The position numbers were made by a program, and so were the translations under genes. Shown piece after piece: positions 44,970 through 63,862 of a stretch of DNA of 64,000 nucleotides (position 1 is the stretch's first letter; every line of letters begins with the position of its first letter). The notes beneath the pieces were generated by a model, which worked only from the letters and a program-made list of their open reading frames with translations, did not search any database and had not been told where the DNA came from. Source of the DNA: Nitrosopumilus sp. (GTDB taxonomy: Archaea; Thermoproteota; Nitrososphaeria; Nitrososphaerales; Nitrosopumilaceae); NCBI GenBank assembly GCA_963662625.1, contig OY759726.1, positions 96,001-160,000 on the forward strand. The letters are read 5' to 3'.

Positions 44970-45953
44970 CTATTTCCCCCTGCAGTACGGGGCGAAGACG
45001 TCGCTGGTCTTGACGTGCTCGTACTGGTCCCAGTCAGAGTCCAGGAGGTCCCTCTCCATCTCGTCCTGGGTGTACCCCCCTTCCGCCGAAAAGTCATGGT
45101 CCTCCAGTTCGTCCCTCAGGCTGTTGCAGAACTCGACCATGTTTGTCCTGTCGTGCGCCGTGGAGGAGTTCCACGCCTCCCTGATCTCGGCCAGGGTCTT
45201 CCCTGAGTACTGGAGCCTCGCCGCCCTGTCGTTCAGCTCAATCCTCCTGGCTTTCAGGTCATGCAGCGCGGAGCCGATCTCCCTGATTTCACTGACCAGT
45301 TTCTCGACGGTCTTCCCAGACCCGTCTCTCACCGGCCCGCCCCTGCAGTACGGGGCGAAGACGTCGCTGGTCTTGACGTGCTCGTACTGGTCCCACTTTG
45401 AATTCAGGAACTGGTGAAGCATTTCTGGCTGGCTCCAGCCCCCCTCCATGGAATAGTCGTTGTCCTGCAGTTCGTCCTCGAGGCTGCCGCAGAATTCAGT
45501 CATGGCGTACCTTTCGCCATCGTCGCCGGCGTCCCACATCTCCCGGATCTCTTCCAGGGAGTGGACGGAGTACTTTATGGCCGCGGCCTGGTCGTTCAGC
45601 GCCCTCCTCCTGGTCCTGAGTCCCAAGATCTCGATGTCGACGTCCTCGCGCCTGCCTGCGATCTTCTCGACTTCTGGCGAGTTGGCAATCAAGCCCCCAG
45701 CCCCCGGCGCGCCCCCCGCCACCGCGGGGATCCCGCACACCTGCCCGGACCCGTCCAGGACTATCTCCGCCGTGGCCGGCACCCGCGCCCGAAGGCACAC
45801 GGCGTACGACCTGGCGCCGTGCCGCACGATGACGGCCGCGACGTTGCCGGGCCTGAAGCCCTCCGGGAGGAGGCTCGCCGCCTCCACCGTCTTACCTGCC
45901 ATGGGGATCTCCCCCCACTCTAGTTCTCCCCTGTACTTTGCTACCTGTTCCAA
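44970..45953 (-). CDS. constant-N-terminus family copy 5, duplicated helical domain
   Basis: Two repeats ending WDQYEHVKTSDVFAPYCRG. Confidence 0.75.
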   Translation of the reverse strand: MEQVAKYRGELEWGEIPMAGKTVEAASLLPEGFRPGNVAAVIVRHGARSYAVCLRARVPATAEIVLDGSGQVCGIPAVAGGAPGAGGLIANSPEVEKIAGRREDVDIEILGLRTRRRALNDQAAAIKYSVHSLEEIREMWDAGDDGERYAMTEFCGSLEDELQDNDYSMEGGWSQPEMLHQFLNSKWDQYEHVKTSDVFAPYCRGGPVRDGSGKTVEKLVSEIREIGSALHDLKARRIELNDRAARLQYSGKTLAEIREAWNSSTAHDRTNMVEFCNSLRDELEDHDFSAEGGYTQDEMERDLLDSDWDQYEHVKTSDVFAPYCRGK

Positions 45954-46344
45954 GATACCACCTCCGTGATATGTCGTGCCGCTCTCGCGGTCGGCGGGGG
46001 CCATGCCCCCGCGGGGCGGGCATCGTCTTCCCGGTGCCTCGGTAGTCGTTCATCCCGATCGGGATGGGTTGTCGTATTCCCCGACCCGCGCCCGGCACAC
46101 GCCGGGTTCGGGTTTCGGCGAGGCCCGCGCGGGACCAAGCCAACCCGGCCAGTGAGGCCGAGCATCCGGCGGCTGTCTGTTCCGCCAGCCGGAATCCTCA
46201 GGGGGTTTGCCCGCATCCAAGGCGGGTCACGGCTCTGAGAGTGGCCGTGATTCGCCCCGCCGCGCCGCAGGCGCCCGGGACACGTCATTTCCGGGCAGTT
46301 CCCCGGAAGTGGCGCTGGGCGCCGGCGGCGCCGGCCTGGGTTCC
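45715..46344. repeat. ~630-bp repeat (structured leader + constant module), also at ~47363-47992
   Basis: Offset 1648; near-identical. Confidence 0.92.
46079..46205 (-). ncRNA. hammerhead-like ribozyme with expanded core (GUC site)
   Basis: CCCC-CUGAGGA-[2 hairpins]-GGC..GCC-GAA-ACCCG...CGGGU-C-GGGG. Confidence 0.6.
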
Positions 46345-47259: not shown

Positions 47260-47601
47260 CTAGTACGCCCCCTTGAGCGCGCGCACTCCCCCGTACGTGG
47301 GGGAGGGGGTCCCGCCGGAACCCCCTTCGGCCGCGGGAATCCCGCGGGCAGCGCATGAGCCCCCCGCCACCGCGGGGATCCCGCACACCTGCCCGGACCC
47401 GTCCAGGACTATCTCCGCCGTGGCCGGCACCCTGGCATTCAGGGTCACCGCGTACGACCTGGCGCCGTGCCGCACGATGACGGCCGCGACGTTGCCGGGC
47501 CTGAAGCCCTCCGGGAGGAGGCTCGCCGCCTCCACCGTCTTACCTGCCATGGGGATCTCCCCCCACTCTAGTTCTCCCCTGTACTTTGCTACCTGTTCCA
47601 A
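47260..47601 (-). CDS. constant-N-terminus family copy 6, short tail
   Basis: Constant module, SCAARGIP, then 24 aa. Confidence 0.6.
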   Translation of the reverse strand: MEQVAKYRGELEWGEIPMAGKTVEAASLLPEGFRPGNVAAVIVRHGARSYAVTLNARVPATAEIVLDGSGQVCGIPAVAGGSCAARGIPAAEGGSGGTPSPTYGGVRALKGAY

Positions 47602-47726
47602 GATACCACCTCCGTGATATGTCGTGCCGCTCTCGCGGTCGGCGGGGGCCATGCCCCCGCGGGGCGGGCATCGTCTTCCCGGTGCCTCGGTAGTCGTTCA
47701 TCCCGATCGGGATGGGTTGTCGTATT

Positions 47727-48907: not shown

Positions 48908-48954
48908 GATACCACCTCCTGGTGTTGTGTTGTTCCGGTCTTGCCGGAGACGAT

Positions 48955-49157
48955 GCCATTCCGGGCATCCGTGCTGAGAAAGAAAACTCAGTGGGTTTGG
49001 GGGGATCGCTCCCCCCGCGTCGCGACACGGATGATGTCGCGTCCCCGTCCGGGGGCCGGGCCGTGGAATCGGCCCTCGGGTTCCACACCGGCCTGCCTGT
49101 CAGCCCTCTCGGGTAACGCCGGTTTGAACTCGGATGTCAGGTCACGAAAAAATGGTT
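48955..49157 (-). repeat. ~200-bp structured intergenic repeat, also at 51691-51893
   Basis: Offset 2736; many hairpins; compensatory changes at the gene-proximal end. Confidence 0.9.
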
Positions 49158-49842
49158 ATAGGTTTGGCACAAGTCTGCACGATGCCCAGTGCTCGCCGGA
49201 GAACTCGCTCACGCCGCAGAACCTGTCGTAGACCACGGCGTGGCCGCTCTCCACCAGGAGCTCGTTGAGGGACTTTGCCGGGGGCTTCCCGTCCTCGAGG
49301 CACCACACCATCCCTATCTCGCGGTCGTACGACCCCCCCGGCTGGCCGGAGTCCAGTCTGTACATCGCCTGCGAGAAAAGGGGGCATTGCGCCGAGGCAA
49401 AGTCCTTCGCCTCTCCGTATCCCGGTTCCCCCCTTTCGGGGGTGTTGACCAGGGCCAGCCTCACCTTGGTCCCGCCTATCGCCAGGGTATCGCCGTCGAT
49501 TATCTTCGTGACGATCCCCTTGTGGAGCAGGCTCCTTGGCTTGTCTGCTGGTGTCGGCTCTGCATCTGGCTGTCGCGCTTCGCCGTCCCCCCCGCTGCCG
49601 GCGGGGCTGGCGTCCTTGTGACCCTGTATCTGCGCCGTCGTGTCCGTGAGCGCGCCTCCCATCGCATCGTCGACGGCGCCTATCCCGTCGGCAAGGAGTG
49701 CCCCTCCCTGCGCGGCGGTGTCGGCTGCCTGTCCCGATATGACGAAGGGAACCACGTAGGCGTACGTGAGGGTCGACACCCCCATCACGATTGCCATCCC
49801 CAGGACCAAAAGGCCGAGTCTTTTGAGGAATTGTCTTGCCAT
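49156..49842 (-). CDS. membrane-anchored thermonuclease (SNase family)
   Basis: IIDGDT, VRLALVNTPE, YDRE and LNELLVESGHA motifs; N-terminal TM. Confidence 0.88.
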   Translation of the reverse strand: MARQFLKRLGLLVLGMAIVMGVSTLTYAYVVPFVISGQAADTAAQGGALLADGIGAVDDAMGGALTDTTAQIQGHKDASPAGSGGDGEARQPDAEPTPADKPRSLLHKGIVTKIIDGDTLAIGGTKVRLALVNTPERGEPGYGEAKDFASAQCPLFSQAMYRLDSGQPGGSYDREIGMVWCLEDGKPPAKSLNELLVESGHAVVYDRFCGVSEFSGEHWASCRLVPNL

Positions 49843-49962
49843 CTGTTTTTCACCTTTTCAGCGTACTCCACACCGGCCTGCCTGTCAGCCGCCTTCGCGG
49901 TATTGCCGGTTTGAGTCCGCACGTCAGGTCGCGAAAAAAGGTTGGTTGGATTCCTGAAGGAA

Positions 49963-51639: not shown

Positions 51640-51910
51640 GAATCAATACACCTCCAATTGGCGTCGGTGACCGGTCAAGCCGGCCATGGAGCCATTCCGG
51701 ACTCCCGTGCTGAGAAAGAAAACTCAGTGGGTTTGGGGGGATCGCTCCCCCCGCGTCGCGACACGGATGATGTCGCGCCCCCGTCCGGGGGCCGGGCCGT
51801 GGAATCGGCCCTCGGGTTCCACACCGGCCTGCCTGTCAGCCCTCTCGGGTAACGCCGGTTTGAACTCGGATGTCAGGTCACGAAAAAATGGTTTGGGAAT
51901 GCTGAGGGTG

Positions 51911-52627
51911 TCAGCACCCGTGAACCCTGGCCCACACCTCGCCGCCGAATGAGCTGCCGCTGCAAGCCGACCTCGCCAACTCCGCGCCGCCTGACTGCAG
52001 CAGCAGGGCGTTGACCGAGACGCCGGTCCCGGACTGGCCGCACCAGACCTTGGCGTATGGCGAGCCGTACCCGTCGGTTCCGAGCCCCACGTCAATGACG
52101 TAGAGGGCGGGGCCGCCGACCGGGCAGAAGGAGTTCAGGGCGGAGTACGCCCCCCCATAGTGGGCGTTGGTCCTGACCATCGTGAGGTTCAGGATCCTGC
52201 CGTTTATGGAGAGGGTGTCCGGATCGATGATCCGGTCCACGCCGCCTGCCGTCGCCTGCCCAATGTCGGGCGGGTCCGAGTAGTCGTGGGCCGTTTCGGC
52301 CCCGTCCAACTCGGAGCAGAGGGAGAGCCCGCACACGACCCTTCCGGCGTCTCCCGCCGGTTCAGGCTCCTCCTCCGGAACCGGCTCCTCCACCGCCGCA
52401 GGCGCTTCTGGCGCCGGGTCGGGGAGGGAGACGTTCAGGATTTGGGGCCCGCAGGACGAGTGGGAGCACTGGCCTTCGCTGACAACCCTGTCCGCCGCCG
52501 GCGCGCTCCAGGAACCATGGGCACCCATCCCGCCGTTAAGGTAGGCAAAGCCGACCGAAAAGGCAAGGACCATGACCATGGCCACCAGGGACGCGACGAT
52601 GACGTTTCTAACAAAGTTGCTTGCCAT
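51911..52627 (-). CDS. membrane-anchored degenerate SNase-like protein
   Basis: IIDPDTL...KVWC...VNALLLQSG; RL..NTPE and YxR motifs missing. Confidence 0.7.
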   Translation of the reverse strand: MASNFVRNVIVASLVAMVMVLAFSVGFAYLNGGMGAHGSWSAPAADRVVSEGQCSHSSCGPQILNVSLPDPAPEAPAAVEEPVPEEEPEPAGDAGRVVCGLSLCSELDGAETAHDYSDPPDIGQATAGGVDRIIDPDTLSINGRILNLTMVRTNAHYGGAYSALNSFCPVGGPALYVIDVGLGTDGYGSPYAKVWCGQSGTGVSVNALLLQSGGAELARSACSGSSFGGEVWARVHGC

Positions 52628-52775
52628 CTTCTATCTCCTGTATTTTCGCCCTCCACACCGGCCTGCCTGTCAGCCGCCTTCGCGGTATTGCCGGTTTGAG
52701 GATGAATGTCAGGTCACAAAAATAGAGGGTTCCACCGCCAAGTGGCGGGTGGTGTCGGGGCCGCCTGGCGGCCCG

Positions 52776-52964
52776 TCAGTCGAACAGACTGTAGAACTGG
52801 CTGTCTGTAAGACGTGGGACTTCGCGGGTCTCGGAGTACATGTTTGACACGTACCTGCCGTGTTCCGGAAGGTAGATGCCCTTCCCCGGAACGTATCTCC
52901 CGATGCCCTGCAGTATGCGGGCGACGTCCCTGTGAGAGTGGCCCTCTGCCACTGAAGTTGCCAT
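52776..52964 (-). CDS. 62-aa hypothetical protein directly behind a hammerhead
   Basis: AUG lies 1 nt after the predicted cleavage site. Confidence 0.55.
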   Translation of the reverse strand: MATSVAEGHSHRDVARILQGIGRYVPGKGIYLPEHGRYVSNMYSETREVPRLTDSQFYSLFD

Positions 52965-53010
52965 GGACCCCGTTCCGGGGTTTCGGCCATCAAGGCCTCG
53001 TCAGCATGGC
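52960..53010 (-). ncRNA. type I hammerhead ribozyme
   Basis: GCCAUG-CUGACGA-GGCC(UUGAU)GGCC-GAA-ACCCCG(GAA)CGGGGU-C-CAUGGC; full core, three perfect stems. Confidence 0.93.
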
Positions 53011-53049
53011 TTCGTTTAGCGAAAAAAGGGGGAGGGTCCCCCGGGGTGG

Positions 53050-53646
53050 CTACCGCCTGCCGCCCATGCCGTCCCGGAGCCTTTGCCAGCGGGACTTTTT
53101 CGGTTCCACGACCTTTTTGGCGCAGAACTCGAGCCGCCGGAGGACCCCGCGGGGGAGGCACTCTTCCAGGTCAGACCTGGACTCCCCCCGGAGCAGCTGC
53201 TCCAGAACCGCCTTGCACTCGGCCGGCCCCATGGCTTGGAATTGCTCCCTGTACCAATCGGAACCGCGGAAGTCCGGCGGGTTGCAGACCAGGCACTCCT
53301 CCTCGTACTCGTCCCCGTGGGGATTGACGTGGTCGTGCGCGTCCGCTTGATCCTTTTCGATCAGTTTGGCGCCCAGCAGGTTCTGCTCGACCACCCGAGC
53401 CGATGGGAGTTCCCTCCATCCGGTGCCGATTGGCTTCCCGGAGACTACGTCCGTCAGTACGTCGCCGTCACTTATGGCGACAACATCGTTCTTGCAATAA
53501 AATTTGCAGGTTTGGCCCTCTGGGCCGGCTTGGGCGCGTACGGCGTCGTCGAGGCCTAGCCTCTCCTGTACGTGCTTGCAGACGCTTTTGGTTAAGAACG
53601 TCCTATCTCCTATGGAGATTTGCTTCATGACTGTTTGTTTTGCCAT
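53050..53646 (-). CDS. hypothetical protein, paralog family B
   Basis: ISIGDRTF...VCK...KFYC N-domain; H..PHG...CLVC. Confidence 0.7.
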   Translation of the reverse strand: MAKQTVMKQISIGDRTFLTKSVCKHVQERLGLDDAVRAQAGPEGQTCKFYCKNDVVAISDGDVLTDVVSGKPIGTGWRELPSARVVEQNLLGAKLIEKDQADAHDHVNPHGDEYEEECLVCNPPDFRGSDWYREQFQAMGPAECKAVLEQLLRGESRSDLEECLPRGVLRRLEFCAKKVVEPKKSRWQRLRDGMGGRR

Positions 53647-53695
53647 GCGACGCCCGTGTCGGGCGTTTCGACCATTCAGGTCTCATCAGGCAGGC
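53642..53695 (-). ncRNA. type I hammerhead ribozyme
   Basis: GCCUGC-CUGAUGA-GACC(UGAAU)GGUC-GAA-ACGCCC(GACAC)GGGCGU-C-GCAUGGC. Confidence 0.92.
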
Positions 53696-53743
53696 TGTCT
53701 GGGCGTCTTTCAAAAATTAAATACTCGGGGGTCCAACATCAGG

Positions 53744-53827
53744 TGGTGGGGGCTCAGTTGTCGTAATATCCAACTGTGTTCATCATGGAACAGTCAGTTG
53801 TCGTTTCATTCATCATCGCCCTCACCA
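53744..53827 (-). ncRNA. box C/D sRNA
   Basis: Terminal stem, AUGAUGA (C), 12 nt, CUGA (D'), 7 nt, AUGAUGA (C'), 22 nt, CUGA (D). Confidence 0.8.
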
Positions 53828-53896
53828 TCCAAGCCCGTCCCAAGGGACGGCCATCCCAAATCGAACACTAAAATAACTCAGGGGCCGCCTGGAGGT

Positions 53897-53967
53897 GGCG
53901 AGGGGTCAGATTTAGAATCAAATCACCATGTGATTCATAGTGCAAATCGTTCATCATCCCCCTCGCC
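53897..53967 (-). ncRNA. box C/D sRNA
   Basis: 9-bp terminal stem GGCGAGGGG/CCCCUCGCC, AUGAUGA, 12 nt, AUGA (D'), AUGGUGA (C'), 13 nt, CUGA. Confidence 0.8.
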
Positions 53968-54350
53968 TTGGAAACTTCAGGCCTGAATCGCCCCAAAACC
54001 GTGTACCTCCTGACGGGGGACACCTCTCCCCGGCTCCGGGAAATGTCCCTGTGACGGGAATGTTTGGTCGGCATGAAAAATCCAGCAGGGAAGATAGGGG
54101 GTTTACTAGGGTCCGATTTTGTGTTTGGTGTTTTGTTCCTATTTCGACCGGAACGCCCACCATAACCGCGAAGGATACTAGGGAGTTCGGGTTTTGTCGG
54201 AGCCCGCAGACGTCCTCCCCCGCAGGGTATATGGATCGCGCCGTCCCGGGGTTGCCAACGGGGCCACTGGCTGCCGGCGCGGCCGCGCCGTACAGGAACG
54301 TGGCACGTGCCACCAGGAATCCAAGACCCGCGTTAAATATCACTGCCGTT

Positions 54351-54650
54351 GTGTCCAGTGTGCCTGGGGCCATATTCAACACCGGGAGGAAGAGGAGGCT
54401 GCTGGACTCCCCAGACTCGCTGACCCCCAGGCAGCGGGCCAGGATCACCTACGCGGCAAAGGCGTCCATCCGCTCGGCGGTGGCTGACATGAGGGCAATC
54501 CTGGAGTCCGACAACGAGGCCCTGGGGTCGTTCCTGCTGGGGGAGCTTGCCTCCCTGCCTGGGACAGGGAGGATGCCGGGGGATCCGGAGGCCGGGGACA
54601 CAGTCGTGGACGACGGGGAGGAGTTCTGGACCGGCGCGGTGGAACTGTGA
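54351..54650 (+). CDS. small hypothetical protein
   Basis: Plausible helical ORF after an AT-rich box; start uncertain. Confidence 0.45.
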   Translation: MSSVPGAIFNTGRKRRLLDSPDSLTPRQRARITYAAKASIRSAVADMRAILESDNEALGSFLLGELASLPGTGRMPGDPEAGDTVVDDGEEFWTGAVEL

Positions 54651-54837
54651 GGCGTTGAATGCAGGCTCAGTGGTTGTGCGTGCCCGCGTGCCGAATCTGC
54701 CGACGCGCCTTCAGCGCCCTGTGGGGCCCAGCCTTCCCCGCGGGAACGCGTCCCGCATTCCCAAGCCACCCCAACAGGAACCAAGTCTGACCACCCACAT
54801 CATTAATTACCGTGCCCCACCCAAAATCACCAGAAAC

Positions 54838-55410
54838 ATGATCGCAGTTGAGATATACTATGTGCTTTTGGGCGCCGGAGTGGGCGCATTCACCTCGTTT
54901 CTAGGGAACTGCGCACTGGCAAAAATTACCGAAAGGAAGGAAACCGAAAGGACAAAGTCGGTGCTGAAAAAGGAGTTCCGGTGGATGTACAAAATACTGC
55001 TGAACAACCTTGTGGTTTGTGACATAATCAGGAATTCAGAACCCGGAGAGCGTGACGATTTCACAAAGTATTCTGTCCTTGGGCACATTCTGGTGGGCGG
55101 CGCCGTCCTGGACTCGTTAATGTCAAGCGGCTCCATACTGAGGCTCAAGCCCGAAGAGATCGGAAGGGTGAAAGCCATAGGAAATAACGTGGCCGCCTAC
55201 GACAACATGGTGGAATGGCTCCGGAACCGGCCGGAAAGGTTCAGCCCGGACGAATTGCTGGACACCATGAATAAGATAGAATCCGAGACCAAGCGAACCA
55301 TAGAATCGCTGGACTCGTTCAAATCCGAATGGATCGACATGGAGAAGGCCAAAAGGGAGGCCGGGGAGGAACTGAAACGCCACTCCGAGGATTGGACCCC
55401 GTTCTCCTAA
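54838..55410 (+). CDS. hypothetical protein with N-terminal TM
   Basis: MIAVEIYYVLLGAGVGAFTSFLG; lower GC. Confidence 0.65.
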   Translation: MIAVEIYYVLLGAGVGAFTSFLGNCALAKITERKETERTKSVLKKEFRWMYKILLNNLVVCDIIRNSEPGERDDFTKYSVLGHILVGGAVLDSLMSSGSILRLKPEEIGRVKAIGNNVAAYDNMVEWLRNRPERFSPDELLDTMNKIESETKRTIESLDSFKSEWIDMEKAKREAGEELKRHSEDWTPFS

Positions 55411-55513
55411 ACCCCGGTGCCTACAAGGCCAGCCTGGGAGGGGCTTCAAAGCCCGCTTTTAAACGGCGCGTGCCAACTATGCTGGTAACCGGAAGTGGCA
55501 CCGGTGGGTGGAA

Positions 55514-56461
55514 CTACCGCAGTCCGTAAGGCCCGACAAACCGTTCCCCGTCAAAGTGGATCATGTGGTCCGGGTCGTCGGCAACCCACACCTCGGTCTC
55601 CCACGATATGTCAGACGCGTATTTTCTCATGGTGTCCCTGTCTGCAAATGCCGTAACGTATACGATTCCGGCCTTAGCCCCAGAGAACATCCCCTGAAGC
55701 TCCCTTCTCCTCTTTGTGTCTACAGGGCCATGGCTTGTGACGGCCTCAATGACAAAAATCCATTCCCGCACCGTGTCGTACATCACCATGTCCGGCATCT
55801 TGCCGTGTGGATCCAGATTGACCCCGAGTTTTGAGAGTAAATTCCGGTCAAAGTACGCGAACTTTTTTGCAGTGTCGCCGACATATACGGGCACATGCTT
55901 CTTCATGAACCTGGAGGTGAATTCGACGTAGATGTCCCTCACGAGGTGGCTGTGTTCCCCGGCAGACAGACGAACCGTCTCCGCCGGTGAAACGTGTATG
56001 GAAACCGCCCCGTCCCTCCTCCTGTATGGGGTTCCCCCATGCCGCAATGGGTGCGTTGCAAGGTACATTTCGAGGTGCTTCTTCCAGGTCTTTTCCCCGT
56101 AGCTTTGCATCAGCTTTAGCGATTCCGGGGTGATCTGGTAGACGGTCTTGCCGCTGTTGGTTGGCCTGTCCGGATTGTCCGGGTTTTCTGATATCAGCGA
56201 CGCGTGCAGGAACTGGTGGATCGTCTGCCTCCGCACCGTCTCACGTGAGTTCGGCGCGTACCTCTTTCCGTAATGTTCCGCAAAGAAGTCCATCATCGGC
56301 GTGATCCCACGGAGCGGGTTTTTTGCCTTCTTCCATGTCCCGTCAGGCCTCAAGTCCAGCAGCGCAAGAAGCGTGAGCGCCGACCTGACGTTTTGCTGTC
56401 TTTTCGGGAGCCCGATCTGTTTCAGGACGTCCAATGCCTCCTCTACCCTTGGATGGATCAA
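55514..56461 (-). CDS. BsuBI/PstI family type II restriction endonuclease
   Basis: YAPNSRETVRRQTIHQF, HGKMPD, IEAVTSHGP and ISWETEVW motifs; TTG start overlaps the MTase stop. Confidence 0.93.
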   Translation of the reverse strand: MIHPRVEEALDVLKQIGLPKRQQNVRSALTLLALLDLRPDGTWKKAKNPLRGITPMMDFFAEHYGKRYAPNSRETVRRQTIHQFLHASLISENPDNPDRPTNSGKTVYQITPESLKLMQSYGEKTWKKHLEMYLATHPLRHGGTPYRRRDGAVSIHVSPAETVRLSAGEHSHLVRDIYVEFTSRFMKKHVPVYVGDTAKKFAYFDRNLLSKLGVNLDPHGKMPDMVMYDTVREWIFVIEAVTSHGPVDTKRRRELQGMFSGAKAGIVYVTAFADRDTMRKYASDISWETEVWVADDPDHMIHFDGERFVGPYGLR

Positions 56462-57975
56462 TGCCTCCCCGCCACCTGGCCGGACAGCAGTCCGCCTACC
56501 GCCCCGTCTATCTCGTCTTGGCCCATCCAACACGCGGTGCGCCGCCCAAGGCTCCCAATCTGCCTCTTGGACGGGTACCTCAGGTACCTCAAATCTGCGG
56601 CGTTGACCTGCGTGCTCCCGTTGAACTGTCGAAAATAGGCATCGACCGCGCTGGAGTTTAGAAAGGCCCACAGTCCTTGCGCCACATTGCCCGCAAGTGG
56701 ACCGCCGCCACTGTGAAAATAATTCACCCTGTTTTCAAAGCCCACCAGATCGGAATCGTGCTCACTGCCGCTCCACACGGATGCCGTGACTCTCCTCCTC
56801 TGTTCTACCGTGGTGAAGCGTTTCACCAGGACGTAGTGGCCATTGGCGACTAGGAGTTTTTTTGACCTTTCGCTTGGCGCGATAAAGTTACAGTGCTTTG
56901 TGTTCCTGCCAGGAAACTGTGTCTTCCCGTCAGATATGTTGAATGGCCTGACCAGGGGGACCGCGTCCTCCCCGTCAGAGAATCTGAGGTCGTCGCTTAT
57001 CCTGAAATCCACCACCTTTCCGGTGGAGACCTCGACGCCAATGTCGCTGAGCGTGCATGGGAGCCGGCGCATCATCTCGGATATCCGCGCCCCAGCCTCG
57101 TCTGGCACTATGTGTATGAACATGTGCGGATCGTCGCCGAACACGATGTCGGATTTTTCCACGCGCCTTTGCACCATGTCGTCCGCCGGGCCAACACTGG
57201 CGGACACCACGGCCTTCCTGTTGGCGCCGTTCTTTCTGGCGCATATTATCACGTTCTCCTGGAGCACCCCGTCGTCACTGAACGATGATGTCCTCGACCT
57301 GAACAGATGGATCCTTTTCGGGGACATCGATCCGAGGAAATCCCTCCTGAAAGGATGGAAATAGGCGCCGTTGCAGAAGCTCCGTGGCGAGATGAATGTC
57401 ATCTGGCCTCCCGTGCCTAGCAGGTTGTGGGAGATGGCGATGAACGCTGAATACATGTTTGTCGTCTGTAACCCGACGCCGCGCAGCGTACCATACGTGT
57501 CTGATGACACGTTGATCTTTTGGTACGGGGGGTTCATTATGACATGCGTGAAACCTCCGGAGAGGGCGTCAGCCGAGGCCGCATAGTCATCAATAAAGTC
57601 CCTCTTCTCCAGGATGCCGGAGAACTCCACCCCGACGTCCCGACACGCGTCGCCGGCATGCCCCAGCGCCGCGTCTATGCCGCCGGATAGTGCGCCATCT
57701 ACCTCGTAGGCCACCACATGTATCGAGTCAGGCAGTCGCCTCCTGTCACATATGCGCTGGACGCACGCGGTGAAGAGGGAACCGGCGCCGGCCCCTGGAT
57801 CAAGGATCCGGATGTCCTTTTGGGAATAGTCCATCATCGATGCCATGAGGTTGGCGACGGAGGGGCTGGAGAAGTACTGCCCGAGCTTTTCCTTTTTTGC
57901 AAGATTTTTGCCTAGCGATTGCCTTGCCGTGCAGGTTCGTTCCAGGAACCCGACGCCCTGCGCTGTGGCGGTCAC
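56458..57975 (-). CDS. N6-adenine DNA methyltransferase (BsuBI/PstI, Eco57I-like)
   Basis: LGQYFS, LDPGAGAG, NPPY and FNGSTQVNA motifs. Confidence 0.93.
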   Translation of the reverse strand: MTATAQGVGFLERTCTARQSLGKNLAKKEKLGQYFSSPSVANLMASMMDYSQKDIRILDPGAGAGSLFTACVQRICDRRRLPDSIHVVAYEVDGALSGGIDAALGHAGDACRDVGVEFSGILEKRDFIDDYAASADALSGGFTHVIMNPPYQKINVSSDTYGTLRGVGLQTTNMYSAFIAISHNLLGTGGQMTFISPRSFCNGAYFHPFRRDFLGSMSPKRIHLFRSRTSSFSDDGVLQENVIICARKNGANRKAVVSASVGPADDMVQRRVEKSDIVFGDDPHMFIHIVPDEAGARISEMMRRLPCTLSDIGVEVSTGKVVDFRISDDLRFSDGEDAVPLVRPFNISDGKTQFPGRNTKHCNFIAPSERSKKLLVANGHYVLVKRFTTVEQRRRVTASVWSGSEHDSDLVGFENRVNYFHSGGGPLAGNVAQGLWAFLNSSAVDAYFRQFNGSTQVNAADLRYLRYPSKRQIGSLGRRTACWMGQDEIDGAVGGLLSGQVAGRH

Positions 57976-59762
57976 CCCGTGTCTCCCCCAGCCCCGGCAA
58001 GGCCGTTCAGGAAGTCACTTATTCGCGCGTTGGCGTCGGGAAGATGCACCGGGATTGGAAGGCCGTCTATTCCGGTAGCGCTGTGGCTTATGAGCAGCCA
58101 CTGGCCCACGCCAAACCGCAGCGATTCCTGCAACGTTTCGTCAGATAGCCCGAATGCCTCCTGTATTTTTTCCCTGTCCGATGCCCGCGGGAGCTTGCTC
58201 ACAAAGTACGTGTGCGGCTGCCCGAGTATGTTGGTGTCCAGGTACACTATCCTCTGGGTGGCTATCCCTATGCCCAGGCCGTACTTTCTCCCACGTCTCG
58301 CGAGCTGCTCCCCCATATGCTTTGATTCCTTCATCCCGGGCTGTTTGTCATCCTGCGCGATGAATTGGTCAGCCTCGTCGTAGATGAACGAGACGGGCGG
58401 CGATATGATCCCTCCCTCCCTTCTTGAGCGGAGCATACGCATTCCAAGCGTGTTTGAGAATTCCCTGACCTTCACGTCGTCTGTGTCCTGTATGATGTAA
58501 AGCGAGCTGGTTGAATCCCGGTTGAGATCCATAACCATGTCGCCGCCTGAGATCTTGTATTTTTGATCCACCTTCTCAACGTTTGAGAGCGTCTTCTTGG
58601 TGTCATTCAGCTTCAAAATAACCCTGAGCCTTAGGTTGTCTGCCTTTGCATGCGAACTCTGGGTAAAGTCATGGCTGTCCAGTTTTGTGATCAGGGTCTC
58701 TATGTCACTGACGGTGCATTTCCTACGGCCGCATCCATCCAGTATTGAAATGAGTTCCCGCGAGGCAGCTGATGTGTCTGCTGAGTCGACGATGTCCCGG
58801 AGCAGTTTTGCAATAGTCTGATCGTCTGGAATCAACACTTTGATCTTTCCACCCATCAGCATGCTTTTGACTGGCTTGTGGAACATCTCTCGTTTGCCAG
58901 CAAGCATCTTTGGGAGTACCGTGGTCTTCACTATGTCCATGGCTGCAGTGTCTGCATTGCTCGCAGATGCGTCACCCCAGAAACGATGCACGGAGCTTGG
59001 GACTGCATCGTATGAAAGAAACACGATGTACGCGTCATCGCTGCCGTACAGTACGTCTGCGAGCAGTATGCCGTATTCCCCCATGAGATCGTAGATCACG
59101 GCCTTGACGGAACCGCGGCTTTCAAATATCTTGGACGTGACTGTGCTCAGAAGGTTTGACTTGCCGGCATTGGTGTATGCGAACACCCCAAAGTGCGTCC
59201 GTATCATGCTGTCCCACAGCGCGAGTATCTCGACGTCTTTCATGTTTGCGAGGGTTCCGAGCACTACGGTGCCGTCCTGACCCTGTAGGTCATGGTTTAT
59301 GATCCTACGCGTCCACTCGGAGTTGAGCAGCCTGGCCCGCTCGCCAGGCATGGGGATGTTGGTCTCTGGTGCCATCTCGGGCTCTCTGCCGTCCATGGAG
59401 CGAGGCCTTGTCACCTCAAACCTGCTTGGCACTGCATCGCACACTATCTTGGTTGTGTCCTCGACCGGCTTGTTCTGGTTCCAGTCCTTGGATGCGCTCA
59501 TTGCGGCTTCTTCCACGAATCCCGGATACCCGTCCATGCTTGCCATCATGGCATAGTGTGTGGGCATTACAGACGTTATCCTCATCACGCTGTAGTGGTC
59601 GACGTCTTTGTTGCTTGAAAAGTTCCTCACGGCCACCAGCGACCCTTCCCGGATCGCATTCATGTGGGAACGCACGAAAGGAAACCAGATCGTAAACCCC
59701 ATGCTTGTCTGGCTTGACTTTCTCATGTCCATCAGCGTTCCTGATATTCCATCTTCAAACAA
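57972..59762 (-). CDS. HerA/DUF87 family ATPase
   Basis: Walker A AYTNAGKS, Walker B FIYDEAD, ARRGRKYG..IATQR. Confidence 0.88.
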   Translation of the reverse strand: MFEDGISGTLMDMRKSSQTSMGFTIWFPFVRSHMNAIREGSLVAVRNFSSNKDVDHYSVMRITSVMPTHYAMMASMDGYPGFVEEAAMSASKDWNQNKPVEDTTKIVCDAVPSRFEVTRPRSMDGREPEMAPETNIPMPGERARLLNSEWTRRIINHDLQGQDGTVVLGTLANMKDVEILALWDSMIRTHFGVFAYTNAGKSNLLSTVTSKIFESRGSVKAVIYDLMGEYGILLADVLYGSDDAYIVFLSYDAVPSSVHRFWGDASASNADTAAMDIVKTTVLPKMLAGKREMFHKPVKSMLMGGKIKVLIPDDQTIAKLLRDIVDSADTSAASRELISILDGCGRRKCTVSDIETLITKLDSHDFTQSSHAKADNLRLRVILKLNDTKKTLSNVEKVDQKYKISGGDMVMDLNRDSTSSLYIIQDTDDVKVREFSNTLGMRMLRSRREGGIISPPVSFIYDEADQFIAQDDKQPGMKESKHMGEQLARRGRKYGLGIGIATQRIVYLDTNILGQPHTYFVSKLPRASDREKIQEAFGLSDETLQESLRFGVGQWLLISHSATGIDGLPIPVHLPDANARISDFLNGLAGAGGDTG

Positions 59763-59768
59763 TTGAAA

Positions 59769-61592
59769 CTACCTCCCAAAATTGCGCCTTATTTCCCTTA
59801 ATGTGTTTATCAGCGGCCGCGATCGGAACTTTATCTCGGAGCTATCGAGCAGTTTTCTCACGCTGTCCCTCATGGACTTTGCCCCCTGGTCTGCCTTGTG
59901 GAGGGGGTCGGGATACCCTATCATCTCCGAGAAGTGGTTTTTCGTGAGCGTGTCAAGCAGGAAATAAGTCACCAGTTGTCCCCTGTTTGTAGTCTTGTTT
60001 GACTGGTAGAAGAACGGCCTCATCTCGCCGGTGCTGGCGTCACTGATCTCGATCCGTTCTGACTCCCCGTCCCATTCCGGAAATGCGAGCCTGTCTATGA
60101 ATATGGCGTGGCCGGTAAGCGGGGACTCGGCACTGCGCCTGGTGTAAAACTGCGCTATGGATCTCAGGAACAGGCATTCCGGCCTGGCTATCCCCCCAAA
60201 CGTGCCGCCAAACTCCTCCTTCCCGCCTCGCTCCTCAACGCGCAGTGTCATGAATGTGGAGTCAAACTCTATCGTGCCCCATGGGCTGTTCAGCCCGTCG
60301 TCTATGTACGGAAGCATCTCGCAGAATACGCGGTCTGTAGGGGGCAGCACTCCGAATGTTTTGCCTGACAATTGCCTGTATTTTCCAAAATGCCGGCACA
60401 CGCCAATGTAGTTTTTTGTCAGGTATGCAGATGCCGAGTCTTTTGCTATCCCGGTCAGCAGTATCTTCCTTGACCAGCATTCTTCTATCAGTGCCCGCAG
60501 CCCTACAGCGATGAGGAACCTCACGTCGTCGGGCGACATCCATTTTGCCACTTTCCTGCCCGCGTCAACCGCCTCGTATTTGAGAGCGTTCTCCCTCTTG
60601 TCGAGGAATATGGCCTTGCAGATTCCCTGGAACATGGACTTTGTCTTCTCCCAGCTCTTGTACGGTTCAATCTTTTGGGTTATGTCGCCAGACGGTCCGA
60701 GCTCCACTATTCCGTTCCCCGCCAGCCCCCGAACCACGCGCTCGAGCCTCTCGCGCCTTATTCCTGTTTCGGATGAGATGTCTTCCATGCGGATGGCCCC
60801 TGGTCCTTTCTCGTGCAGGAACCGCATGACTGATGACCTTTCCGTGAATTTCTTCGTGCTTGGGATCCCCAGTTCAGAGTTGAATGGGTGGGCCTGGGCT
60901 ACAATTACGTCCTGCTTGCTAAACACCATGCCATCAGACATCGCGCAACCCACAAGTCGAACCTTGTCTGCGCCAAAGTCAGTGTAGCCCAGCATGCCGC
61001 TCAGGCTGTTGTCTATCAATATTATGTCCGGGCGGTCCAGGTTTGAACTCGTGGCCGAATTGTACGCAAGGAAGATCTCGGCAAGCTGCATCATCGGGAG
61101 GTGCATGCTCGTAAGCTCTATCTTGTCTGACTCGGATACCGCGAACATGTTTGCCTCCCTGCCGTCGTTTACCTCCAGTATCCTGCTGTATGGAATTGGC
61201 ACGAATGCGACCATGCTCACGTCCTTTTCTATCTCCCACCGCCTGTATTCCACAGTCGCCTCCCCGCCAGACAGGGACAGCACCCCCTTTGCGCCATATG
61301 CCCCCCCGTAAAACGAGATGAACTCCCCCGAGCTGTGCTTGTGGCAGCTCCCATCCACCGCAACAAAGTTCAGCTCGCGTTTCCCAAAAAAGCCCTCGGT
61401 CTCGTCTGCCACCATGTTAACAAATTCCCTGTCCGCGAGCCTTCCTCCCATGTTAACTGTCAGGTCCCTGAAAAAATCATTGTAAAACTCCCTTGCGTTT
61501 GATGAGCCAAGCCGCACGGTTTCCTCATATTCGTCCTGGGCCTGATCCAAGCTTCTCTTGTATGACGAATAAATCTCGGAGATCCGCCCCAT
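59769..61592 (-). CDS. NurA-like nuclease with inserted wHTH
   Basis: VAVDGS, ILIDNSL, GIAKDS and GYPDPLHKAD motifs. Confidence 0.82.
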   Translation of the reverse strand: MGRISEIYSSYKRSLDQAQDEYEETVRLGSSNAREFYNDFFRDLTVNMGGRLADREFVNMVADETEGFFGKRELNFVAVDGSCHKHSSGEFISFYGGAYGAKGVLSLSGGEATVEYRRWEIEKDVSMVAFVPIPYSRILEVNDGREANMFAVSESDKIELTSMHLPMMQLAEIFLAYNSATSSNLDRPDIILIDNSLSGMLGYTDFGADKVRLVGCAMSDGMVFSKQDVIVAQAHPFNSELGIPSTKKFTERSSVMRFLHEKGPGAIRMEDISSETGIRRERLERVVRGLAGNGIVELGPSGDITQKIEPYKSWEKTKSMFQGICKAIFLDKRENALKYEAVDAGRKVAKWMSPDDVRFLIAVGLRALIEECWSRKILLTGIAKDSASAYLTKNYIGVCRHFGKYRQLSGKTFGVLPPTDRVFCEMLPYIDDGLNSPWGTIEFDSTFMTLRVEERGGKEEFGGTFGGIARPECLFLRSIAQFYTRRSAESPLTGHAIFIDRLAFPEWDGESERIEISDASTGEMRPFFYQSNKTTNRGQLVTYFLLDTLTKNHFSEMIGYPDPLHKADQGAKSMRDSVRKLLDSSEIKFRSRPLINTLREIRRNFGR

Positions 61593-61623
61593 CGGGGTTA
61601 GTCCGCAGGCCTCGTATTAAAGA

Positions 61624-62613
61624 TCATTCGTCTGAGCGTTCCAAGCATCTTCTCATCCTAGCTCCCAGGATCATGGCGAAGAGGGGTGGCATGGCGTTGC
61701 CTATCTGTTTCATCTTGCTGTATTTGGAACCGGAAAACCCAAACCAGTCTGGAAACCCCTGCAGCCTGGCGGCCTCCCTGACAAAAAGTGTGCGCCTCCT
61801 TCCGTCACGGGTCCGGATCCGGTGCATGTCGCTTGAGTGCCCTCCCAGGTTTCTGCATGTCAGTGTCCGCGCTGGTCTGCCACGATCCAGGTCGCGTGCC
61901 CGGCGACATTGGGATGCCATTTCGTATGCCGATATGTATCGGTCCATCTCGGGCGTCAGGTATGACGGTTCCTCCCTCTCCGCTCTGGGGATGTTTTTCA
62001 GCGCCTCCCCGGCGGTCACCTGTACCCCGAGCCCGGACGGGGGCAGGTATCCACCGTGATGCCCTATTGCAATCACGCGTTCCCGGCTTTGCGGAACCCC
62101 GTAATCAGAGCAGTTTGCGACCGACACGTCCACAGAGTACCCGAGTTTTTCGAGCCTTTTCATCGATGATGTGAAATAGTCCCTGTTTCTGTACAGCATC
62201 CCGCGCACGTTCTCAAAGACCCACATCCTGGGCTTGAGTTGTTTCACGGCCGCTACGAATGAGGGAATTCCATTCCTGTCGTCCATCGGGCCCATCTGCT
62301 TGCCGCGCACGCTGAATGGCTGGCACGGGGGTCCGCCTGCCACTATGTCTGCGTATGGAAAGTCGTACCCCGGAGTGATGGATCCGTTCACGCAGGTTCC
62401 CCTCAGGTTGGAATTATATGTGGCGCAGCAGTCCGGGTTGCTGTCTATTCCGATCACCTTGAAACCTGCCGCCTCCAGTCCCAGGGACAGCCCGCCTGCG
62501 CCGGAATATATGTCAAGCACCGCGTATCTTGGGTTTTTTTTTGGCCTCAGAATTTTATCCAGTTCCGCCGCATAGTTTTTCTTGAGTGCGCACGGGTCGA
62601 TCAAGGTTTGCAA
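61624..62613 (-). CDS. C5-cytosine DNA methyltransferase
   Basis: DIYSGAGG, GGPPCQPFS, ENV, Q.RER, RLQGFP and IGNA motifs. Confidence 0.95.
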   Translation of the reverse strand: MQTLIDPCALKKNYAAELDKILRPKKNPRYAVLDIYSGAGGLSLGLEAAGFKVIGIDSNPDCCATYNSNLRGTCVNGSITPGYDFPYADIVAGGPPCQPFSVRGKQMGPMDDRNGIPSFVAAVKQLKPRMWVFENVRGMLYRNRDYFTSSMKRLEKLGYSVDVSVANCSDYGVPQSRERVIAIGHHGGYLPPSGLGVQVTAGEALKNIPRAEREEPSYLTPEMDRYISAYEMASQCRRARDLDRGRPARTLTCRNLGGHSSDMHRIRTRDGRRRTLFVREAARLQGFPDWFGFSGSKYSKMKQIGNAMPPLFAMILGARMRRCLERSDE

Positions 62614-62911
62614 TACATCTCATCTCAACAAAAAATAATTTATTAGTATTCTTTAAAAGCAGGACAGGGGGAGTCTACGGCACATAATTCCCCGTGGGGC
62701 AGTCTGGCAGATCGGGATCTAAACGCCAACACCAAGCACGCCGGCCCCGCAGAAACTAGCCTTCAAGCACAGGAACCACGGAAGGCACTTTCTTGCAGAT
62801 AGGCACCGGGTGTGACGCCATACTTGTGATTATCCATGTCGTGATGGAGTGGATGGGGCACACACAGCCCATGTGGAAAAAATCAAATAACAATGGAGGA
62901 TAGGTTGGGTA

Positions 62912-63535: not shown

Positions 63536-63539
63536 CAAT

Positions 63540-63842: not shown

Positions 63843-63862
63843 GCCCTGCCAAGAACGCTGTC

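Follow-up and report, generated by a model that had tools for sequence, protein, structure and literature searches.

The question raised by this locus is whether two hammerhead ribozyme motifs, HH1 and HH2, encoded on the minus strand within a 64,000-nucleotide stretch of Nitrosopumilus sp. DNA (the window), make the 5′ ends of the mRNAs that follow them. A preliminary description of the sequence had proposed that both cut 1 or 2 nt before the AUG of the next open reading frame (ORF) and so define a leaderless 5′ end. In 2011, Perreault et al. stated that the numerous hammerheads encoded in the DNA of bacteria and archaea, and of the viruses of both, had no proven biological functions (PMC3088659), and we found no later paper that settled this point. 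The AUG-coupled layout was not found described in the literature covered, a search that stopped short of subscription papers and supplements; the word “Cenarchaeum,” an archaeon tentatively named in the preliminary description as carrying a hammerhead, is absent from the main text of PMC3088659. We consider it fairly probable that HH1 and HH2 are active type I hammerheads acting as 5′-end makers for mRNAs of the Nitrosopumilaceae, whose conserved cut-before-AUG layout probably converts longer transcripts into leaderless messages ready for translation.

Both motifs possess a complete catalytic core (C3 U4 G5 A6 N7 G8 A9, G12 A13 A14, an A15.1-U16.1 pair, and H17 at the cut), and a G10.1-C11.1 pair closes stem II. 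Read along the minus strand, with loops in square brackets and a slash at the predicted cut, HH1 is GCCUGC-CUGAUGA-GACC[UGAAU]GGUC-GAAA-CGCCCG[ACA]CGGGCG-UC/GCAUGGC, and HH2 is GCCAUG-CUGACGA-GGCC[UUGAU]GGCC-GAAA-CCCCG[GAA]CGGGG-UC/CAUGGC. In the MFE folds, stem I is open in both motifs, which makes them type I, and stems II and III are loop closed; a stem-checking scan recovered identical coordinates. C17 of HH1 is position 53649, and the cut predicted between 53649 and 53648 would yield a 3′ product opening with GC-AUG, while C17 of HH2 is position 52966, and a cut between 52966 and 52965 would leave C-AUG. These ends, 2 nt and 1 nt ahead of the respective start codons, are those given in the preliminary description.

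Table 1. Coordinates of the features at the hammerhead locus (window positions).
Feature	Position	Strand	Details
Promoter-like box TTATTTTA	53869..53876	minus	Putative; upstream of the sRNA; conserved in the second locus
C/D-box sRNA-like gene	53744..53827	minus	Boxes and terminal stem; subthreshold Rfam matches
TATA box TATTTAATTTTT	53712..53723	minus	Host type; overlaps a T5 run
HH1, type I hammerhead	53695..53642	minus	Core CUGAUGA / GAAA / GUC; from sequence, stem scan, and MFE fold
198-aa ORF	53646..53050	minus	AUG 53646-53644 within HH1 stem I; orphan protein
T6 run	53022..53027	minus	After the stop codon of the 198-aa ORF and before HH2; same arrangement in the second locus
HH2, type I hammerhead	53010..52960	minus	Core CUGACGA / GAAA / GUC; from sequence, stem scan, and MFE fold
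62-aa ORF	52964..52776	minus	AUG 52964-52962 within HH2 stem I
Structured leader motif	52643..52717	minus	GUGACCUGACA ... CUGACAGGCAGGC ... GUGUGG; conserved; opens the next cassette

The MFE fold of each motif was the three-way junction (HH1, −22.5 kcal/mol, z −3.15, equaled or bettered by 3 of 200 shuffles; HH2, −23.2 kcal/mol, z −2.28, equaled or bettered by 6 of 200). HH2 retained the hammerhead fold within a 130-nt context; in a context of the same length, alternative pairing of the HH1 start region with a downstream GUCAUG is possible. Inspection by eye revealed neither a pseudoknot nor an internal loop that might provide the tertiary contact between stem I and loop II associated with fast cleavage at low Mg2+, and since no loop-loop contact was identified in HH1 or HH2, their activity at cellular Mg2+ remains a prediction. 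Most copies have an A flanking the 6-bp stem I on its 5′ side, and nearly all have one on its 3′ side, a feature shared with many viral hammerheads of the same design that is at most suggestive of such a contact.

Scanning the window with Rfam models at gathering scores returned no hammerhead matches. In E-value mode, HH1 reached 19.9 bits with RF00163 (E 0.082, gathering score 34) and HH2 reached 19.0 bits with RF03152, for which the second score was 17.4 bits (gathering score 56.3). The Rfam comparison suggested in the preliminary description thus placed both motifs below gathering, at best with 19.9 bits against 34, a threshold that is the curators' cutoff and not a biochemical criterion. 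Our own models scored HH1 at 75.7 and 68.3 bits and HH2 at 66.6 and 68.3 bits. Taken without its stems, the bare core pattern does not exceed chance in the window (6 matches, where 3.7 would be expected; 21 of 100 shuffles had at least 6); it is because of their stems and of the covariation among relatives that HH1 and HH2 stand above chance. Several other candidates were set aside: L025 4990-5035 (CUGUUGA core), L026 5553-5605 (4-bp stem I and GAGG after the cut), the truncated hammerhead remnant L187 2362-2392, and the ribozyme matches at window positions 41577 and 9489 and in L206, L207, and L208, which were false or weak.

Relatives of the two motifs were found at a second locus of the same genome, with three further copies, and in other genomes of the Nitrosopumilaceae; up to five occur in tandem in a relative. 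Thirteen of the hammerhead loci were retrieved via an unrelated repeat rather than via the ribozyme. For two of the five copies in the genome itself, the hammerhead was not the MFE fold, and degenerate copies occur beside intact ones (e.g., GAAA changed to UAAA in L023 164..115). Among 18 distinct relatives, 96.6% of pair cells were standard pairs, a figure favored by fitting the alignment to the model, and 12 of 15 pairs had changed on both sides. None of 500 shuffles matched the observed percentage paired or the covariation score, and slid controls gave 24 to 38%. The pair adjacent to the cut occurred in all four Watson-Crick forms (CG in 7 sequences, AU in 6, GC in 3, and UA in 2). With core, three stems, MFE folds, and covariation in agreement, the assignment of both motifs as canonical hammerheads was borne out.

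The base pairs around the AUG covary across the 18 distinct sequences, and the AUG itself is fixed. An ATG followed the predicted cut by 1 or 2 nt in 22 of 23 matches from related Nitrosopumilaceae (1 nt in 18, 2 nt in 4, and 0 nt in none), counts that overstate independence because the matches are kin. The cut-to-AUG distance, which the preliminary description had named as a point to check among homologs, is thus conserved, with one exception, the hammerhead at L024 11487-11551, which has GUG and a frame of a mere 11 codons. Some of the frames linked to hammerheads are very short (11, 26, 28, and 34 amino acids). As a control, type I hammerheads with this stem design were taken from viral contigs; of 154 distinct ones, 21 had an ATG at 1 to 2 nt and 8 had an ORF of at least 40 amino acids. 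With 22 of 23 matches, the AUG-in-stem-I layout is kept well beyond the needs of base pairing. One viral contig has an ArdC-like gene led by a hammerhead in the same manner, which hints that the layout may extend beyond the Nitrosopumilaceae. The 40 nt preceding the ribozyme contained 0 to 10% G in 15 of 23 cases, compared to 18 to 24% on those strands, consistent with a transcribed leader free of structure.

In agreement with the preliminary description, the AUGs of both the 198-aa and the 62-aa ORF lie inside stem I, and neither ORF has an upstream Shine-Dalgarno site, while neighboring genes carry sites of the GGAGGTG type, e.g., caggaggtgttgaaATG and caggaggtggtatcATG. The G+C fractions by codon position (0.65/0.41/0.77) were coding-like for the 198-aa ORF, and those of the 62-aa ORF were 0.57/0.44/0.71. 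Pfam and PHROGs family searches with the 198-aa product gave no match, and its only match among 5.8 billion proteins was a paralog in its own genome that has three 1-nt deletions; the 62-aa ORF is full length (62 amino acids) in both genome copies. Since the copies of these two ORFs differ mostly nonsynonymously and one is frameshifted, they give no support for purifying selection on the two proteins. A search for sequencing runs containing the stretch yielded three, none labeled as RNA; these consist of contigs, in which paralogous copies appear as variants. An identity of the 198-aa product with Nop5 was considered and rejected: a PDB sequence search gave just noncolinear matches of 20 to 26 residues (E about 0.9), and comparison with a putative Nop5, the large ORF at the usual place of Nop5 adjoining the genome's fibrillarin gene, gave an E value of 7.4, so that we regard the Nop5 match as chance.

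Start-codon identity was addressed by homology. In two other genomes, SNase-like membrane proteins led by a hammerhead align from Met1 with a homolog in the window (49156-49842) whose gene is led by a Shine-Dalgarno site, which supports the stem I AUG as the true N terminus in this family. TATA-like hexamers in the host genome peak 28 to 31 nt ahead of candidate ATGs, so the host itself appears to use leaderless starts; it has Shine-Dalgarno sites as well as these putative leaderless-type promoters. From the proposal that the cut defines a leaderless 5′ end, four parts stand, namely, the reality of the hammerheads, the conserved AUG layout, Met1 by homology, and the apparent leaderless starts of the host, and the transcript, its cleavage, and the 5′ end are predicted. 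The gating of translation put forward in the preliminary description would be one possibility beside constitutive processing.

Beyond the preliminary description, the locus revealed a putative C/D-box sRNA and a TATA box before HH1 and a position of HH2 between two cistrons without a promoter of its own. The sequence upstream of HH1 has the boxes, the terminal stem, and, next to a D or D′ box, the guide of ∼12 nt complementary to rRNA or tRNA that characterize archaeal C/D-box sRNAs: box C (AUGAUGA), a 12-nt guide, box D′ (CUGA), box C′ (UGAUGA), a 22-nt spacer, and box D (CUGA), closed by the stem UGGUGAGGGC/GCCCCCACCA. Its matches to the Rfam C/D families were below threshold (sR1, 19.9 bits, E 0.014, gathering score 45). 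The D′ guide can form a 10-nt pairing with the organism's own 16S rRNA at 1346-1355, starting 2 nt from the box, and the same guide was found in a diverged relative of the sRNA; on the D side, an 11-nt match to 23S rRNA sits 9 nt from the box within the 22-nt spacer, which is atypical. A strict genome-wide scan yielded three such genes compared to 0, 0, and 0 in shuffles, after loosening of a terminal-stem rule whose stricter forms had given 0 and then 1. A D box of the C/D type was present at most 75 nt upstream in 10 of 23 hammerheads, the remaining 13 having no upstream sRNA.

Between this sRNA and HH1, TATTTAAT sits 28 to 21 nt ahead of the first base of HH1, and the same type of TATA motif lies ∼30 to 23 nt ahead of host tRNA genes. 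From this spacing we infer that the host-type box would start transcription at the first bases of HH1; the overlapping T5 run could end the sRNA transcript. The sequence leading from the end of the 198-aa ORF to HH2 contains no TATA box, and HH2 is therefore most likely reached by read-through. The structured leader motif downstream is context, separate from the ribozymes. A metagenome scan with the leader-repeat pattern returned 13 single matches and no convincing hammerhead (one was weak, with 17.2 bits and E 0.012).

The preliminary description had also spoken of an archaeal element. If a mobile element was meant, this was not borne out: no integrase exceeded the cutoff anywhere in the genome and none lay near the locus, the cassette ORFs had no PHROGs hallmark, phage and plasmid collections gave no match to the locus, and the leader repeat linked to the hammerheads had 0 matches in viral contigs. 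A low-GC defense island adjoins the locus. Searches for McrA and sigma-70 gave no match and those for fibrillarin and AmoA did, results that served to place the organism.

On the reading we favor, each ribozyme would be transcribed from the minus strand immediately before an ORF without a Shine-Dalgarno site, and the 3′ strand of its stem I would consist of the start codon together with the opening bases of codon 2. Cleavage after C17 would then strip all upstream RNA, in the case of HH1 the ribozyme itself and, on read-through transcripts, the C/D-box sRNA, and in the case of HH2 the preceding cistron. The product would be an mRNA with a 5′-OH and a stub of 1 to 2 nt ahead of the AUG, which, once the 6-bp stem I melts, could join the normal leaderless initiation of the host; the upstream RNA would be released with a 2′,3′-cyclic phosphate end. 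In this way, tightly packed cassettes could each yield a separately translatable message from any promoter. Because cut site and start codon coincide with a missing ribosome-binding site, a specific 5′-OH end and a protein output dependent on catalysis are predicted. At the level of sequence, this reading is supported by the anatomy of the motifs, their covariation, the conserved position of the AUG, homology that identifies the start codon, and the missing Shine-Dalgarno sites; it predicts that the RNA is cleaved in vivo, that transcription starts at HH1, and that the 5′-OH product is translated.

The hammerheads might instead serve chiefly in RNA processing or insulation, releasing an sRNA, a leader, or a cistron and setting mRNA stability, with the AUG lying in stem I through compactness and the cut being no help to translation. 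Such a role would suit the 10 hammerheads with a D box nearby and the sRNA itself, which is probably functional since its guides match rRNA and which would need a 3′ end. Moreover, the sole hammerhead without an AUG-initiated ORF directly precedes a structured leader and then a gene with a Shine-Dalgarno site. Another genus of the family conserves a different hammerhead, after which comes a 25-nt leader containing GAGGTG, and prophage polycistronic RNAs can be cut by tandem hammerheads (PMC3088659). However, the 13 hammerheads lacking an upstream sRNA do not fit, and compaction would leave unexplained the invariant AUG amid covarying neighbors, the missing Shine-Dalgarno sites, and the constant stub of 1 to 2 nt, so that we regard processing as the main role as unlikely. 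We are more doubtful still that the fold is a translational off-state hiding the AUG, with stem I opened by other means and the ribozymes, being minimal and devoid of tertiary contacts, cutting slowly in vivo or not at all. The AUG is indeed wholly paired in stem I, no loop-loop contact was identified, and the scores fall under Rfam thresholds, but all catalytic-core positions are kept in diverged copies although a hairpin would do, degenerate copies such as L023 164..115 look like decay and not design, and viral type I hammerheads without obvious loop contacts do cut in vivo (PMC13725137).

Two further explanations carry little weight. The 198-aa ORF is flanked by two ribozymes, and a relative has up to five in tandem, so pairs of hammerheads might excise unit-length RNAs (∼680 nt from HH1 to HH2) that the tRNA ligase RtcB circularizes into circular mRNAs or sRNA precursors. 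The chemistry of hammerhead product ends (5′-OH and 2′,3′-cyclic phosphate) fits RtcB, and circular C/D-box sRNAs are known in archaea. We nevertheless consider this very improbable, as the units vary in content and length, there is no hint of replication, and a circle would bury the AUG again. That HH1 and HH2 are chance motifs or dead relics without present function is hardly credible: matches to the loose core pattern in the window do not exceed chance, and the linked ORFs are orphans, one copy being a pseudogene, but covariation over 18 distinct sequences, recurrence in several genomes, and the fixed position of the AUG speak against it.

A broader and more tentative reading, to which we give somewhat less than even weight, is that the leader, C/D-box guide sRNA, and hammerhead form a modular RNA expression system of the Nitrosopumilaceae placed before small cassette genes, in which one transcript serves twice. 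The ribozyme would both release a working guide for rRNA modification and create a 5′-OH N-AUG leaderless mRNA, whose retained −1 nucleotide might replace the 5′-triphosphate that normally stabilizes leaderless initiation complexes. If true, a prokaryotic hammerhead would for the first time have a cellular function assigned to it, and ribozyme-dependent translation initiation would have a natural example beyond eukaryotic viruses. Hammerhead function could be tested sharply and cheaply at this locus. It also bears on how archaeal ribosomes handle leaderless mRNAs without a 5′-triphosphate, on end formation of mRNA-embedded C/D-box sRNAs, and on gene expression in ammonia-oxidizing archaea, which are abundant but difficult to cultivate and for which genetic tools are scarce. 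The layout may provide a compact natural part for multigene expression from one archaeal transcript.

The closest DNA-encoded counterparts are the prophage tandem hammerheads and those of haloviruses HF1/HF2, which, as here, are intergenic within one transcript, occur several per locus, and give gene-sized pieces (PMC3088659). In HF1/HF2, the ribozyme lies just before a start codon and the mapped 5′ end is at most 3 nt from the cut, but the start codon follows 13 nt downstream and is not part of the ribozyme, whereas here it is inside stem I, at 1 to 2 nt, without a Shine-Dalgarno site (PMC3088659). The present host, moreover, is an ammonia-oxidizing archaeon, and a link to a C/D-box sRNA is absent from the available text of PMC3088659.

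The same order of promoter, ribozyme, and AUG as in HH1 has been used at the bench, where a hammerhead inserted after a strong promoter and ahead of an ORF yields exact leaderless archaeal mRNAs with a 5′-OH (PMC11698992). That design cuts directly before the AUG, while the natural HH1 and HH2 are predicted to leave a stub of 1 to 2 nt. In Sulfolobus solfataricus, a 5′-OH instead of a 5′-triphosphate lowers the stability of the leaderless initiation complex and makes 30S binding less favorable (PMC11698992), which counts against the leaderless-mRNA explanation of HH1 and HH2.

Among eukaryotic systems, HDV-like ribozymes at the 5′ ends of retrotransposon RNAs promote translation, as mentioned in PMC13725137; there, too, a self-cleaving ribozyme sets the 5′ end of a coding RNA cotranscribed with upstream sequence, but the ribozyme class, the eukaryotic hosts, and the retroelement life cycle differ. 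Type I hammerheads in the 5′ untranslated regions (UTRs) of chrysoviruses and fusariviruses, whose self-cleavage is required for cap-independent translation (Lopez-Galiano et al. 2026, PMC13725137), resemble HH1 and HH2 in lying before an ORF without obvious loop-loop contacts and in that cleavage enables translation. They reside in RNA virus genomes of eukaryotic hosts, within a longer UTR, and act by a mechanism given as unknown in the available text of PMC13725137. Unlike these, HH1 and HH2 are DNA encoded and archaeal, and their predicted product fits an existing leaderless pathway.

The genome carrying the window, a single 1.86 Mb contig, encodes fibrillarin and archaeal AmoA, and neither sigma-70 nor McrA was found in it, which identifies an ammonia-oxidising archaeon. 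Two minus-strand hammerhead ribozymes, HH1 and HH2, had been placed in the window by a preliminary description, and reading of the sequence together with a stem scan confirmed its coordinates, cut sites and account of both motifs. When the core plus three stems was demanded, a script scan returned exactly these two. Stem I is open in both (type I hammerhead design), and the predicted 3' products begin with GC-AUG (HH1) and C-AUG (HH2). Without stems, the bare core pattern was at chance level, with 6 matches in the window against an expectation of 3.7 and at least as many in 21 of 100 shuffles. At gathering scores, Rfam reported just one tRNA in the window and no hammerhead. A scan with the Rfam hammerhead models, as the preliminary description had proposed, did yield matches in E-value mode, HH1 on Hammerhead_1 (19.9 bits, E 0.082; gathering score 34) and HH2 on RAGATH-1-hammerhead (19.0 bits; gathering score 56.3), but none reached the gathering score. 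The case for HH1 and HH2 rests on folding and comparison. The minimum-energy fold was a three-way junction for HH1 (z -3.15; 3 of 200 shuffles as good) and for HH2 (z -2.28; 6 of 200). No tertiary contact was identified in either.

Features of the window and of a second locus in the same genome (slash, predicted cut; C17, core residue after which it falls)
Feature	Position	Strand	Remarks
HH1	53695..53642	minus	GCCUGC CUGAUGA GACC-UGAAU-GGUC GAAA CGCCCG-ACA-CGGGCG UC/GCAUGGC; C17 = 53649
HH2	53010..52960	minus	GCCAUG CUGACGA GGCC-UUGAU-GGCC GAAA CCCCG-GAA-CGGGG UC/CAUGGC; C17 = 52966
198-aa ORF	53646..53050	minus	opened by HH1 AUG
62-aa ORF	52964..52776	minus	opened by HH2 AUG
C/D-box sRNA-like gene	53827..53744	minus	upstream of HH1; sub-threshold Rfam C/D matches (sR1 E 0.014)
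Structured RNA, ~75 nt	52643-52717, 51809-51881, 49858-49932	minus	precedes cassette genes
Second cassette locus	L009 8612-10430 = C1:1808612-1810430		holds three hammerheads along with three genes resembling C/D-box sRNAs

Three further hammerhead copies lie near 1.81 Mb, in a second cassette locus of the same genome. Two of these three lack a hammerhead fold at minimum energy, one C/D-box sRNA-like gene there has a partial internal duplication, and the paralogue of the 198-aa ORF carries three 1-nt deletions. A covariance model of the five own-genome copies detected additional hammerheads in 2 of the 100 related genomes searched; one of the two, from the same genus, holds five in tandem within 2.5 kb; two other weak matches were rejected as hammerheads. 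With a second model, 13 of 151 genomes of the family matched (a tally including the unpublished G131), and over 151 genomes of the phylum only one plausible hammerhead was found outside the family. Across 18 distinct sequences, in an alignment fitted to the model and thus favouring the pairing figures, standard pairs filled 96.6% of pair cells and 12 of 15 pairs changed on both sides; an earlier count on 10 sequences gave 93.5% and 9 of 15. In 500 shuffles, neither the percentage paired nor the covariation score was ever as high as in the real alignment, and pairing was 24-38% when partners were slid as a control. Judged from sequence comparison, HH1, HH2 and their relatives are real, selected hammerheads.

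The preliminary description had suggested checking the cut-to-AUG distance in homologues, and it proved conserved: an ATG followed the predicted cut in 22 of 23 tabulated hits (18 of 19 distinct ones), at 1 nt in 18 hits, 2 nt in 4 and 0 nt in none. The AUG and its CAU partner were invariant while neighbouring stem I pairs varied; the pair adjoining the cut was CG in 7, AU in 6, GC in 3 and UA in 2, and flanking pairs varied freely. For a ribozyme-blind sample, a 21-letter pattern of an unrelated intergenic repeat was used, which retrieved 14 Nitrosopumilaceae loci among 32 stretches. Thirteen were searched with the model (L173 was left out, judged already covered by L023) and gave 12 matches, of which all canonical ones are predicted to cut 1 nt before ATG. 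Whole-record searches of five of these assemblies returned no other hammerheads, under filters that missed three long-stem copies in one. As a viral control, at least 120 viral stretches were collected with an unbiased core pattern. The matches listed included 154 distinct hammerheads of type I that share this stem design, with ATG at 1-2 nt offsets in 21 (14%; composition predicts ~3.6%) and a frame of at least 40 aa in 8. These counts make AUG coupling a property of the archaeal set, with a viral minority possible. On viral contig L055 (89-949), the predicted cut of a type I hammerhead falls 2 nt ahead of the ATG for an ArdC-like anti-restriction protein of 272 aa, whose domain match begins near residue 31 (profile position 34); going by this contig, some viruses may have the layout too.

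GC content by codon position (0.65/0.41/0.77 in the 198-aa and 0.57/0.44/0.71 in the 62-aa ORF) followed a coding pattern that was not seen in the overlapping plus-strand frames. Comparison of upstream sequences bore out the earlier statement that both ORFs lack the GGAGGTG Shine-Dalgarno motif of neighbouring genes; directly 5' of each lies the ribozyme. The best evidence that the stem I AUG is a real start comes from SNase homology. In L024 and L168, hammerheads lead ORFs of 227 and 223 aa, respectively, whose SNase-domain proteins can be aligned from Met1 onwards, including a hydrophobic N-terminal segment, with the product of the window's SNase-like ORF at 49156-49842, which is preceded by aaaaggtgaaaaacagATG and not by a hammerhead. 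Against this, the 198-aa protein has no relative except its own paralogue with its three 1-nt deletions, copies of the 198-aa and 62-aa ORFs differ mostly by non-synonymous changes in our reading of the alignment, and several hammerhead-linked frames elsewhere span just 11-34 codons. A Nop5-like identity of the 198-aa protein was rejected: its matches to the N-terminal domain of archaeal Nop5, a protein of C/D-box RNPs, were two short, non-colinear stretches (residues 117-164, E ~0.9) and were judged chance, and no similarity was found to a large ORF next to fibrillarin in the genome, a presumptive Nop5 gene going by its usual position.

The preliminary description covered the motifs and AUGs but missed the upstream C/D-box sRNA and a TATA-like box. 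The 12-nt D' guide of the sRNA shows a 10-nt pairing with the host's own 16S rRNA (1346-1355) that begins 2 nt away from the box; a low-GC relative has the same D' guide, and its remaining guides have 9-10-nt matches to sites in 23S and 16S rRNA. A strict genome scan returned only three C/D-box genes, two of them in hammerhead loci, and zero in three shuffles. For 10 of 23 hammerheads, a D box was present no more than 75 nt upstream. TATTTAATTTTT lies between the sRNA and HH1, with its TATTTAAT portion at -28..-21 relative to HH1's first base; as host tRNA genes have a similar box at about -31..-23, this candidate promoter is placed for a start within a few bases of the HH1 5' end. TATA-like hexamers before candidate ATGs of 1448 likely genes peaked at -31..-28 (26, 38, 36 and 29, versus 4-7 at the outer positions counted), indicating that the host uses leaderless-type promoters. 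HH2 is preceded by a T6 run without a box of the HH1 kind and is therefore probably reached from the 198-aa cistron. In relatives, the 40 nt upstream of the ribozyme were almost G-free (0-10% G in 15 of 23), which fits a transcribed leader kept from disturbing ribozyme folding and suggests that the ribozyme is not always at the very end of the transcript.

We propose that transcription may start from the box of HH1 itself, from the sRNA promoter or in the preceding cistron, and that in each case the hammerhead would fold once the start codon emerges. Cleavage after C17 would free an mRNA that begins with a 5'-OH and has a stub of 1-2 nt before the AUG; this mRNA would enter the host leaderless pathway, and the upstream piece would carry a cyclic phosphate end. 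According to PMC11698992, a bench design for making leaderless archaeal mRNAs has the same architecture. The paper also reports that, in S. solfataricus, a leaderless mRNA's 5'-triphosphate acts as a mimic of a -1 base on the 30S subunit, and that a 5'-OH lowers complex stability; the latter counts against efficient translation of the cleaved RNA. The mimicry may, in our view, explain why the natural ribozymes retain one base or more ahead of the AUG in every case.

The hammerheads and their AUG coupling, as first interpreted, thus found support, but gating of translation and a mobile element did not. In one relative the ribozyme has GUG with a frame of 11 codons, and a structured leader and a Shine-Dalgarno-led gene follow downstream; here the same ribozyme apparently also serves plain cistron separation. 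A different hammerhead (L149-L158, 1501-1552), with a 4-bp stem I (UCCC/GGGA), occurs once per genome in another genus of the family, where it is conserved in 9 of 10 genomes (including G131; 8 were read), and also in 1 of 10 genomes of a further genus. Its neighbours are two ORFs of unknown family, one on either side, and downstream of it come a ~25-nt leader containing GAGGTG and an ATG. In longer context, a downstream GUCAUG may pair with the HH1 start region. Ribozyme gating is therefore not established. The "archaeal element" of the preliminary description was not borne out as mobile, since no integrase was found near the locus and no match to it among viral contigs, phage and plasmid collections.

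A low-GC island (~52000-64000; 52-61% GC versus 63% in the genome) adjoins the locus and encodes a BsuBI/PstI restriction enzyme and methylase, a HerA-like ATPase with a weak NurA-like neighbour, a C5 cytosine methylase and a TIR-domain protein. The cassette region contains 300-nt repeats (45711-46010 and 47359-47658, 97% identical) and 223-nt repeats (48935-49157 and 51671-51893, 95% identical); an identical 62-nt direct repeat occurs at 32205-32266 and 34525-34586 on the plus strand, 2.3 kb apart. The ~75-nt structured RNA ahead of the cassette genes has many further copies in Nitrosopumilaceae (L023, L024, L161, L168, L170, L176, L180, L182, L187 and L188), in arrays of up to 13 within 8 kb. 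It comprises a T-run, invariant GUGACCUGACA, a covarying outer stem, CCNGC/GCNGG, a variable hairpin, invariant CUGACAGGCAGGC and GUGUGG. Over 33 distinct copies 95.0% of cells were paired (slid controls, 43-62%) and 9 of 14 pairs were compensatory. Rfam gave no match to it at E values of up to 1. It has the look of a leader or regulatory RNA not previously described.

The preliminary description knew of no AUG-coupled layout, and in the literature, supplements aside, we likewise found no description of a start codon in stem I giving a leaderless mRNA, of a link between hammerheads and C/D-box sRNAs, or of hammerheads in ammonia-oxidising archaea. A 2011 paper describes hammerheads from at least three archaea, prophage polycistronic RNAs with hammerheads in tandem and, in a halovirus, a hammerhead located 13 nt upstream of a start codon and close to a mapped 5' end (PMC3088659). 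For fungal and plant RNA viruses, type I hammerhead cleavage was needed for translation, according to a 2026 report (PMC13725137). In contrast to the halovirus hammerhead, the start codon here lies within stem I, 1-2 nt from the predicted cut, a layout that offers a clear, testable candidate function for a prokaryotic hammerhead.
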